From sequence record MZ375246.1: a stretch of DNA of 37,681 nucleotides; one strand, given 5' to 3'. The notes under the pieces were generated by a model that was given only the letters and a program-made list of their open reading frames with translations, was not told where the DNA came from and searched no databases. Of this stretch, positions 1,260 to 37,681 are shown piece after piece (the stretch's first letter is position 1; each line of letters begins with the position of its first letter). The stretch comes from Escherichia phage T7. Position numbers and translations under genes: made by a program.

Positions 1260-1390
1260 TGTCTACTACCAACGTGCAATACGGTCTGACCGCTCAAACT
1301 GTACTTTTCTATAGCGACATGGGGCGGCGTGGCATAGACGAAAGGAAAAGGTTAAAGCCAAGAAACTCGCCGCACTTGAACAGGCACTAG
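1259..1390 (+). pseudogene. 0.4: Gene 0.4 remnant: first ~21 codons ([21 protein letters not shown]) fused out of context to sequence from the end of the 0.6 region; 43-codon ORF
   Basis: ATG overlaps the ocr stop (taatg) as in T7; downstream text jumps to the sequence that immediately precedes gene 0.7. Implies about 563 bp deleted. Confidence 0.6.
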
Positions 1391-7022: not shown

Positions 7023-7045
7023 TTTTACGACTCACTAAAGGAGGT
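7023..7045 (+). promoter_or_regulatory. T7 promoter phi1.5, altered at -16/-15 by the upstream deletion junction
   Basis: ttttacgactcactaaaggaggt; consensus TAAT at -17..-14 reads tttt here. Confidence 0.7.
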
Positions 7046-7428: not shown

Positions 7429-8010
7429 TGGGACTGTTAGATGGTGAAGCCTGGGAAAAAGAAAACCCGCCAGTACAAGCAACTGGGTGTATAGCTTGCT
7501 TAGAGAAAGATGACCGTTATCCACACACCTGTAACAAAGGAGCTAACGATATGACCGAACGTGAACAAGAGATGATCATTAAGTTGATAGACAATAATGA
7601 AGGTCGCCCAGATGATTTGAATGGCTGCGGTATTCTCTGCTCCAATGTCCCTTGCCACCTCTGCCCCGCAAATAACGATCAAAAGATAACCTTAGGTGAA
7701 ATCCGAGCGATGGACCCACGTAAACCACATCTGAATAAACCTGAGGTAACTCCTACAGATGACCAGCCTTCCGCTGAGACAATCGAAGGTGTCACTAAGC
7801 CTTCCCACTACATGCTGTTTGACGACATTGAGGCTATCGAAGTGATTGCTCGTTCAATGACCGTTGAGCAGTTCAAGGGATACTGCTTCGGTAACATCTT
7901 AAAGTACAGACTACGTGCTGGTAAGAAGTCAGAGTTAGCGTACTTAGAGAAAGACCTAGCGAAAGCAGACTTCTATAAAGAACTCTTTGAGAAACATAAG
8001 GATAAATGTT

Positions 8011-10423: not shown

Positions 10424-12235
<1,812 letters not shown>

Positions 12236-12303
12236 CAGGTTTCTTGACAGTTGTTTCATATGAAGAGATTGTTAAGTCACGATAATCAATAGGAGAAATC
12301 AAT

Positions 12304-14418
12304 ATGATCGTTTCTGACATCGAAGCTAACGCCCTCTTAGAGAGCGTCACTAAGTTCCACTGCGGGGTTATCTACGACTACTCCACCGCTGAGTACGTAA
12401 GCTACCGTCCGAGTGACTTCGGTGCGTATCTGGATGCGCTGGAAGCCGAGGTTGCACGAGGCGGTCTTATTGTGTTCCACAACGGTCACAAGTATGACGT
12501 TCCTGCATTGACCAAACTGGCAAAGTTGCAATTGAACCGAGAGTTCCACCTTCCTCGTGAGAACTGTATTGACACCCTTGTGTTGTCACGTTTGATTCAT
12601 TCCAACCTCAAGGACACCGATATGGGTCTTCTGCGTTCCGGCAAGTTGCCCGGAAAACGCTTTGGGTCTCACGCTTTGGAGGCGTGGGGTTATCGCTTAG
12701 GCGAGATGAAGGGTGAATACAAAGACGACTTTAAGCGTATGCTTGAAGAGCAGGGTGAAGAATACGTTGACGGAATGGAGTGGTGGAACTTCAACGAAGA
12801 GATGATGGACTATAACGTTCAGGACGTTGTGGTAACTAAAGCTCTCCTTGAGAAGCTACTCTCTGACAAACATTACTTCCCTCCTGAGATTGACTTTACG
12901 GACGTAGGATACACTACGTTCTGGTCAGAATCCCTTGAGGCCGTTGACATTGAACATCGTGCTGCATGGCTGCTCGCTAAACAAGAGCGCAACGGGTTCC
13001 CGTTTGACACAAAAGCAATCGAAGAGTTGTACGTAGAGTTAGCTGCTCGCCGCTCTGAGTTGCTCCGTAAATTGACCGAAACGTTCGGCTCGTGGTATCA
13101 GCCTAAAGGTGGCACTGAGATGTTCTGCCATCCGCGAACAGGTAAGCCACTACCTAAATACCCTCGCATTAAGACACCTAAAGTTGGTGGTATCTTTAAG
13201 AAGCCTAAGAACAAGGCACAGCGAGAAGGCCGTGAGCCTTGCGAACTTGATACCCGCGAGTACGTTGCTGGTGCTCCTTACACCCCAGTTGAACATGTTG
13301 TGTTTAACCCTTCGTCTCGTGACCACATTCAGAAGAAACTCCAAGAGGCTGGGTGGGTCCCGACCAAGTACACCGATAAGGGTGCTCCTGTGGTGGACGA
13401 TGAGGTACTCGAAGGAGTACGTGTAGATGACCCTGAGAAGCAAGCCGCTATCGACCTCATTAAAGAGTACTTGATGATTCAGAAGCGAATCGGACAGTCT
13501 GCTGAGGGAGACAAAGCATGGCTTCGTTATGTTGCTGAGGATGGTAAGATTCATGGTTCTGTTAACCCTAATGGAGCAGTTACGGGTCGTGCGACCCATG
13601 CGTTCCCAAACCTTGCGCAAATTCCGGGTGTACGTTCTCCTTATGGAGAGCAGTGTCGCGCTGCTTTTGGCGCTGAGCACCATTTGGATGGGATAACTGG
13701 TAAGCCTTGGGTTCAGGCTGGCATCGACGCATCCGGTCTTGAGCTACGCTGCTTGGCTCACTTCATGGCTCGCTTTGATAACGGCGAGTACGCTCACGAG
13801 ATTCTTAACGGCGACATCCACACTAAGAACCAGATAGCTGCTGAACTACCTACCCGAGATAACGCTAAGACGTTCATCTATGGGTTCCTCTATGGTGCTG
13901 GTGATGAGAAGATTGGACAGATTGTTGGTGCTGGTAAAGAGCGCGGTAAGGAACTCAAGAAGAAATTCCTTGAGAACACCCCCGCGATTGCAGCACTCCG
14001 CGAGTCTATCCAACAGACACTTGTCGAGTCCTCTCAATGGGTAGCTGGTGAGCAACAAGTCAAGTGGAAACGCCGCTGGATTAAAGGTCTGGATGGTCGT
14101 AAGGTACACGTTCGTAGTCCTCACGCTGCCTTGAATACCCTACTGCAATCTGCTGGTGCTCTCATCTGCAAACTGTGGATTATCAAGACCGAAGAGATGC
14201 TCGTAGAGAAAGGCTTGAAGCATGGCTGGGATGGGGACTTTGCGTACATGGCATGGGTACATGATGAAATCCAAGTAGGCTGCCGTACCGAAGAGATTGC
14301 TCAGGTGGTCATTGAGACCGCACAAGAAGCGATGCGCTGGGTTGGAGACCACTGGAACTTCCGGTGTCTTCTGGATACCGAAGGTAAGATGGGTCCTAAT
14401 TGGGCGATTTGCCACTGA
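12304..14418 (+). CDS. 5: DNA polymerase (gene 5)
   Basis: 704-aa [30 protein letters not shown]... Confidence 0.99.
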
Positions 14419-37339: not shown

Positions 37340-37387
37340 ATGTTCCGCTTATTGTTGAACCTACTGCGGCATAGAGTCAAGTCCTAA
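37340..37387 (+). pseudogene. 19.5: Gene 19.5 remnant (MFRLLLNLLRH... then out-of-context tail; 15 codons)
   Basis: ATG with ggagga RBS at the expected position, but the ORF stops after 15 codons; offset arithmetic implies about 189 bp missing here. Confidence 0.55.
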
Positions 37388-37539: not shown

Positions 37540-37681
37540 TCTCACAGTGTACGGACCTAAAGTTCCCCCATAGGGGGTACCTAAAGCCCAGCCAATCACC
37601 TAAAGTCAACCTTCGGTTGACCTTGAGGGTTCCCTAAGGGTTTGTCTTTGGGTGTTACCTTGAGTGTCTCTCTGTGTCCCT
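37540..37681. repeat. Right terminal direct repeat (TR)
   Basis: 37541..37681 is identical to 1..141. Confidence 0.9.

Follow-up and report, generated by a model that had tools for sequence, protein, structure and literature searches.

The window, i.e., the whole stretch of 37,681 nucleotides of Escherichia phage T7 DNA (MZ375246.1) analyzed here, lacks 1,019 bp between genes 4 and 5; the two copies of an imperfect direct repeat recombined here, with the crossover in the sequence ACAGG, and the segment was thereby deleted. The gap is not a chance feature but a single distinct change, with precisely mapped ends, relative to the reference T7 genome. We are highly confident that the window carries the gp4.3-4.7 "large fragment" deletion from the passaging of T7 by CRISPR/Cas9 iterative genome reduction (CiPGr), and that it is a sister clone of T7_110S. 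The deletion, its viability and its sequence have already been published and deposited, and in this respect the finding is real but ordinary; the only additions of the present analysis are the repeat anatomy, which explains the site of the deletion, and the two junction alleles found among the clones.

The genes on both sides of the gap are intact. Gene 4A (primase/helicase; 10535..12235, plus strand) is present in the list of open reading frames and aligns with T7 11565-13265; the listed frame reads MDNSHDS... from codon 17 and ends with the stop codon TGA at 12233-12235, and the junction microhomology begins with the last base of this codon. Gene 5 (DNA polymerase, 704 aa; 12304..14418, plus strand) is complete according to both the list of open reading frames and the reference alignment. 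Because the gene 4 stop codon ends at 12235 and the gene 5 ATG lies at 12304, the interval between the two genes (12236..12303, plus strand) is 68 bp long, compared to 1,087 bp in wild-type T7 (V01146), where it lies between the end of gene 4 at 13265 and the gene 5 start at 14353. In the V01146 annotation, this interval includes the end of gene 4.2 (12988-13326), promoter phi4.3 (13341), gene 4.3 (13352-13564), gene 4.5 (13584-13853), promoter phi4.7 (13915) and gene 4.7 (13927-14334). Comparison of the whole window to V01146 by megablast produced collinear blocks with five deletions between them, and base-by-base extension of the flanks identified the segment missing here as T7 13270-14288, exactly 1,019 bp (an equivalent placement starts at 13265). 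The original prediction, made from the sequence of the window, had stated a 68-bp spacing, a deletion of about 1 kb that removes the tail of gene 4.2 and genes 4.3, 4.5 and 4.7, and a T7 interval with phi4.3, phi4.7 and the same three genes; these statements agree with the open reading frames and sequence, with the reference alignment and with the V01146 annotation, respectively.

Coming from the left, the match to T7 is exact up to window position 12239 (T7 13269); coming from the right, it is exact as far as position 12235 (T7 14284). The 5-bp overlap common to both flanks, ACAGG (12235-12239), is the exact crossover zone. In wild-type T7, the recombining pair consists of a left copy at 13260-13277, TTCTGACAGGATTCTTGA, and a right copy at 14279-14296, TTCACACAGGTTTCTTGA, which match at 15 of 18 positions, with 12 matches in the 13-position core ACAGG(A/T)TTCTTGA. 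The start-to-start spacing of the two copies, 1,019 bp, is equal to the length of the deletion, and exactly one hybrid copy, ACAGG-T-TTCTTGA (12235..12247), has been kept, in which the T at 12240 derives from the right-hand (gene 4.7) copy. The junction was delineated by flank extension, repeat scans and alignment of sibling clones, and the repeat pair was found independently by a diagonal scan and by a repeat tool (family D6). The only better repeat in the 1.1-kb interval is formed by phi4.3 and phi4.7, and a deletion between these two would be 574 bp long and would not include gene 4.7; the ACAGG repeat is the second-best pair in the diagonal scan and the only strong pair that removes genes 4.3, 4.5 and 4.7 and yet spares genes 4 and 5. 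By our own calculation, the chance of an exact overlap of at least 5 bp at a random junction is about 0.5%, and that of a further 7/7 matches after one mismatch is about 6e-5; taken together, the two make a chance origin negligible. Thus, all testable features of a deletion between short direct repeats were found, i.e., repeats at the endpoints, a length equal to the repeat spacing, and microhomology beyond that expected by chance. A repeat-mediated deletion had been proposed before, and this part of the proposal stands; however, the near-repeats quoted in its support (ttctgacagg and ttcttgacag) are neighbouring strings inside the mutant, whereas the members of the true pair are separated by 1,019 bp in parental T7. 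T7 makes repeat-mediated deletions spontaneously during serial passage. A description of the gene 4.3-4.7 repeat pair was not found in the searchable literature, and the terms "microhomolog" and "direct repeat" are absent from the main text of the paper on the CiPGr experiment (Yuan et al., 2022, PMC9825161).

The lost material comprises the tail of gene 4.2, phi4.3, genes 4.3 and 4.5, phi4.7, and gene 4.7 with the exception of 15 codons. The segment also contains a modest hairpin (T7 13856-13901, z = -2.2), the position of which we take to be that of the R4.7 RNase III site. The product gp4.3 matches Pfam DUF5471 and gp4.7 has no Pfam match; both belong to PHROG families of unknown function. 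The 3' remnant of gene 4.7 (12238..12285, plus strand), identified by translation and by a frame check against T7 14332-14334, consists of the last 15 codons, GFLTVVSYEEIVKSR, followed by TAA (12283-12285), and has neither a start codon nor a ribosome-binding site of its own. The embedded gene 4.2 frame (11958..12263, plus strand) now encodes 101 aa (112 in the wild type), of which the first 94 are native and the last 7, FLDSCFI, form a new tail; the truncated frame still matches PHROG 5140, and wild-type gp4.2 matches Pfam DUF5480. Window positions 12240-12303 are identical to T7 14289-14352; therefore, the gene 5 Shine-Dalgarno sequence AGGAG (12291..12295, plus strand), 8 nt upstream of the ATG as in the wild type, and its spacing to the start codon are unaltered. 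No second copy of gp4.3, gp4.5 or gp4.7 was found in the whole window by tblastn and blastn, and the only matches of the deleted genes and segment were the gene 4.7 remnant, the gene 4.2 frame, and those of the lost promoters to other T7 promoters. These results bear out three further points of the original prediction, namely, a changed C-terminus of the embedded gene 4.2 frame, a retained gene 5 ribosome-binding site, and the absence of genes 4.3, 4.5 and 4.7 from the rest of the genome. A fourth has to be corrected: the sequence LSHDNQ, given as the retained C-terminus of gp4.7, belongs to another reading frame, and the true tail is the 15-residue sequence given above.

The junction region is present as one uninterrupted match in 28 GenBank records of T7, all of them laboratory mutants (23 records of the MZ3752xx series, OL964741, and PV223880-PV223883). 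Records of wild-type T7 and of other laboratory T7 match it in two pieces about 1 kb apart, and the junction is found in no wild-type record. The record MZ375254.1 (Mutant Escherichia phage T7 clone T7_110S) is 99.98% identical to the window over the whole length of the latter, with 8 mismatches and no gaps, and has the five deletions with the same boundaries, as well as the same T allele at the junction. It differs from the window in length (37,682 bp versus 37,681 bp, the window being without the first base of the T7 genome) and by 8 SNPs, 3 of which are private to the window and 5 to the record when the clones are compared. Most of the other markers of the window are shared with T7_80L and T7_120S. 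The near-identity to T7_110S, combined with private SNPs and common markers, is indicative of a sister clone, picked from the evolving population that also yielded T7_110S.

The link between the window and the CiPGr experiment is based on sequence, clone naming and content. In that experiment (Yuan et al., Nucleic Acids Res 2022, PMC9825161), T7 was passaged 300 times on cells with a library of Cas9 guides and donors, plaques of both sizes, large (L) and small (S), were taken at intervals of 10 transfers, and the genomes of 60 of them were sequenced; the clone name T7_110S fits both the L/S labels and the sampling at every tenth transfer. The undesigned losses of large fragments from T7 described in that paper are gp0.3-0.6, gp4.3-4.7 and gp19.5, and they were attributed to CRISPR-escape mutations with the qualification "probably" (PMC9825161). 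All three are found in the window, at T7 ~1342-1904 (563 bp), 13270-14288 (1,019 bp) and 39429-39617 (189 bp), along with two designed cassette deletions, one taking out gene 1.4 precisely from its ATG through its stop codon (T7 7608-7763) and one of 292 bp in gene 3.8. Thus, each feature of the CiPGr T7 lineage that could be tested is present, i.e., near-identity to a deposited clone, the three undesigned losses, and the designed cassettes. The junction microhomology is 0 bp for the designed deletions of genes 1.4 and 3.8, 9 bp for gp19.5 and 5 bp for gp4.3-4.7.

The formation of the deletion can be envisaged as follows. Cuts by Cas9 in the dispensable genes 4.3, 4.5 or 4.7 would produce breaks, and the T7 exonuclease and annealing functions would resect these breaks until the flanking repeats anneal; alternatively, replication might have slipped between the repeats. 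The deletion product would then have been selected and spread, because all targets in the region go in one step, so that every guide against it would be escaped at once. An improbable alternative is that the repeat-mediated deletion arose spontaneously and was selected for other reasons, e.g., a shorter genome and faster replication over hundreds of transfers, with Cas9 playing no part. The anatomy of the junction does resemble that of spontaneous T7 deletions between short direct repeats, as the classical literature is said to describe them. The authors of PMC9825161, for their part, say only "probably" of CRISPR escape. However, guides against non-essential genes were used in the experiment, and the disruption of gp4.7 is followed explicitly in the same paper. 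Furthermore, sibling clones of the same experiment had genes 4.3 and 4.7 removed separately by the designed route, with 4.5 kept, which shows that selection acted on this region in the same population, and sequenced T7 laboratory genomes from outside the experiment keep the wild-type interval.

Deliberate engineering with a homology donor, like that behind the seamless gp4.3-gp4.7 deletion of T7-B, is less probable still and, in our view, very unlikely. This explanation gains some weight from T7-B itself (PV223880), which has essentially the same junction, made by recombineering, and from the deletions of genes 1.4 and 3.8 in the window, which are plainly designed. Nevertheless, a designed HR cassette is expected to have boundaries that coincide with gene boundaries and do not depend on repeats, whereas the endpoints of the 1,019-bp deletion ignore gene boundaries, leaving 15 codons of gene 4.7 and cutting the gene 4.2 frame, and fall in a native repeat. 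In addition, the loss of gp4.3-4.7 is called one "that we did not design" in PMC9825161, and the boundaries of the other deletions in the window match those of the CiPGr clones, not those of T7-B. Finally, the gap between genes 4 and 5 is neither a natural variant nor an assembly artefact: for a spacing native to a natural T7-like phage, or an assembly collapse between the repeats, considered here as the counter-case named in the original prediction, no supporting point was found, and it is to be given hardly any credence because all wild-type T7 records have the 1,087-bp interval with the junction confined to laboratory mutants, the imperfect repeat of 13-18 nt is too short for an assembly collapse, 28 genomes, each assembled separately, have the same junction, and the loss of gp4.7 was tracked by PCR in PMC9825161.

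The reading that we prefer is escape from Cas9 through recombination between the repeats, and alignment of the clones revealed two alleles of the junction. The allele ACAGG-T-TTCTTGA, with the crossover to the left of the repeat mismatch, is found in the window, T7_110S, T7_80L and five other records; the allele ACAGG-A-TTCTTGA, with the crossover to the right of the mismatch, is found in T7_120S, 130L, 210S and 270S. Clones with the A allele and those with the T allele have most SNP markers in common and represent one recombining population. The two alleles are compatible with two independent events, with segregation of one annealed heteroduplex, or with a later point change. We tentatively suggest, while leaning slightly against it, that the repeat pair may be a recurrent deletion hotspot, with the T and A alleles going back either to separate events or to opposite strands of one annealed heteroduplex, and that, in addition, every minimal T7 chassis with this deletion may, through the loss of gp4.5, be sensitive to Lon-dependent toxin-antitoxin defences.

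With the two internal promoters lost, gene 5 would now be expressed only on read-through from phi4c, phi3.8 or further upstream, as had been predicted. Both promoters were located by a consensus scan and are kept, phi4c at 11624..11646 (plus strand; +1 at 11641, corresponding to T7 12671), which has become the T7 promoter closest to gene 5 on its upstream side, and phi3.8 at 10425..10447 (plus strand; +1 at 10442, corresponding to T7 11180). To our knowledge, there are no strong terminators between T7 class II genes, so that read-through is normal. The gene 5 message would, in addition, no longer be cut at R4.7. A scan of the junction revealed no newly created sigma-70-like (host-type) promoter, and the terminator search at the junction gave two weak terminator-like hits, at the background level. 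The gene 5 leader is not folded more stably than shuffled sequence in either the mutant (z = 0.25) or the wild type (z = -0.31), and therefore we make no claim of altered gene 5 translation. As regards annotation of this gene, records such as MZ375255 (T7_120L), in which 4.3 and 4.7 are missing through designed deletions and 4.5 is kept, give the DNA polymerase CDS with an extended upstream start.

The second predicted effect concerns counter-defence. T7 gp4.5 matches Pfam PF17574, "Inhibitor of toxin/antitoxin system (Gp4.5)", with an E-value of 2e-62, and no homologue of this type was detected in the whole window by tblastn, which gave only chance matches with E above 1. According to a review (PMC8230891), gp4.5 blocks Lon and thereby keeps the sanaTA system from firing; the function against Lon-dependent toxin-antitoxin systems assigned to gp4.5 in the original prediction is thus backed by the Pfam name and by that review. 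Judging from the gene content, this Lon-inhibiting function would have been lost from the phage. Given that gp4.5 is gone, it is reasonable to predict sensitivity to Lon-dependent toxin-antitoxin systems of the sanaTA type. In the searchable text, no phenotype of CiPGr clones on sanaTA hosts is reported.

Several other changes were observed in the same genome. The gene 3.8 deletion (292 bp, T7 11254-11545; window 10487-10535, junction 10515/10516) is not a multiple of three in length and brings the gene 3.8 start into the reading frame of gene 4A. In addition to the usual 566-aa primase/helicase, a 582-aa version with an N-terminal extension could, therefore, be produced, and the long form is the one annotated by GenBank in MZ375254. 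The gene 1.4 deletion (window 7023-7045, junction 7025/7026) takes the first three bases of phi1.5, changing TAATACGACTCAC to TTTTACGACTCAC, and may weaken this promoter. At window position 386 (T7 405), an A>G substitution at the +1 position of phiOL changes TATAAGGAGA to TATAGGGAGA, which is nearer to the T7 consensus; this substitution is common to all four CiPGr clones compared and is absent from T7-B. The 189-bp deletion in gene 19.5 (T7 39429-39617; window 37371-37379), with an exact 9-bp microhomology, ATAGAGTCA, is a second undesigned repeat-mediated loss in this genome. The 563-bp deletion that removes genes 0.4-0.6 (~T7 1342-1904; window 1322-1334) has its endpoints in an imperfect G+C-rich repeat, GGTGCGCTGTGGC / GGGCGGCGTGGC, and T7_80L has different boundaries at this locus, indicating at least two separate deletions here within the population. 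The terminal repeat contains an 18-bp deletion (T7 99-116, GGGTTGGGGATGACCCTT; window 98 and about 37642-37681), which, judging by length, affects both copies of the repeat, left and right. Point differences from wild-type T7 include two that are private to the window (4499 and 30764) and seven that are shared with siblings (17522, 22636, 24194, 30961, 32018, 32123 and 33214). They cluster in the virion genes 7.3, 12, 16 and 17, and most are common to other CiPGr clones; the shared differences suggest a laboratory stock or adaptation to the passage host.

The window is an engineered and passaged T7 mutant, and its differences from T7 should not be read as natural variation. The practical value of the present results is in annotation, and there is little in them for discovery. 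Loss of the 4.3-4.7 region is known, tolerated and already exploited in chassis building; it should be noted that T7 chassis phages without 4.3-4.7 are also without the gp4.5 counter-defence.

Two such phages, and two older kinds of T7 mutants, can be compared to the window. In T7-B (PV223880.1; SMART method, mBio 2025), gp4.3-gp4.7 were removed at the same repeat, leaving the same 68-bp spacing, as judged from its record and from the paper (PMC12153263). The differences are that the deletion was made deliberately by Red/ccdB recombineering, that the junction has the A allele with an extra C>T three bases past the repeat, and that 0.3-0.7, 1.7, 5.3 and 7.7 were removed and 19.5 was kept. According to the same paper, the deleted locus of T7-B served as an insertion site, and the burst size was 197 versus 224 in the wild type. 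PV223880 was also considered as an independent spontaneous recurrence of the deletion, and this was rejected since, according to PMC12153263, the phage was built by recombineering following an earlier list of non-essential genes. T7-mini (PP384394.1; PHEIGES, Nat Commun 2024) is likewise viable and has lost the greater part of the interval between genes 4 and 5 (PMC10933291); it differs in being designed and in having other boundaries, with about 92 bp more kept, including a synthetic bridging overhang. A Lon or toxin-antitoxin liability of the deletion is not mentioned in the available parts of these two chassis papers (PMC12153263, PMC10933291). T7 lacking gene 4.5, known from the sanaTA/Lon work as cited in PMC8230891, resembles the window in the absence of gp4.5, and the window additionally lacks 4.3, 4.7, two promoters and the presumed RNase III site. 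Since T7-B and T7-mini are viable, loss of the region is independently confirmed as tolerated. The classical T7 deletions between short direct repeats, reportedly described by Studier and co-workers and by Masker and co-workers, mainly in the early region (0.3-1.3), are similar to the deletion in the window in that as many bases are lost as separate the starts of the two repeats, a single copy remains, and the repeats are 5-13 bp long; they differ in location, the junction in the window being between genes 4 and 5.
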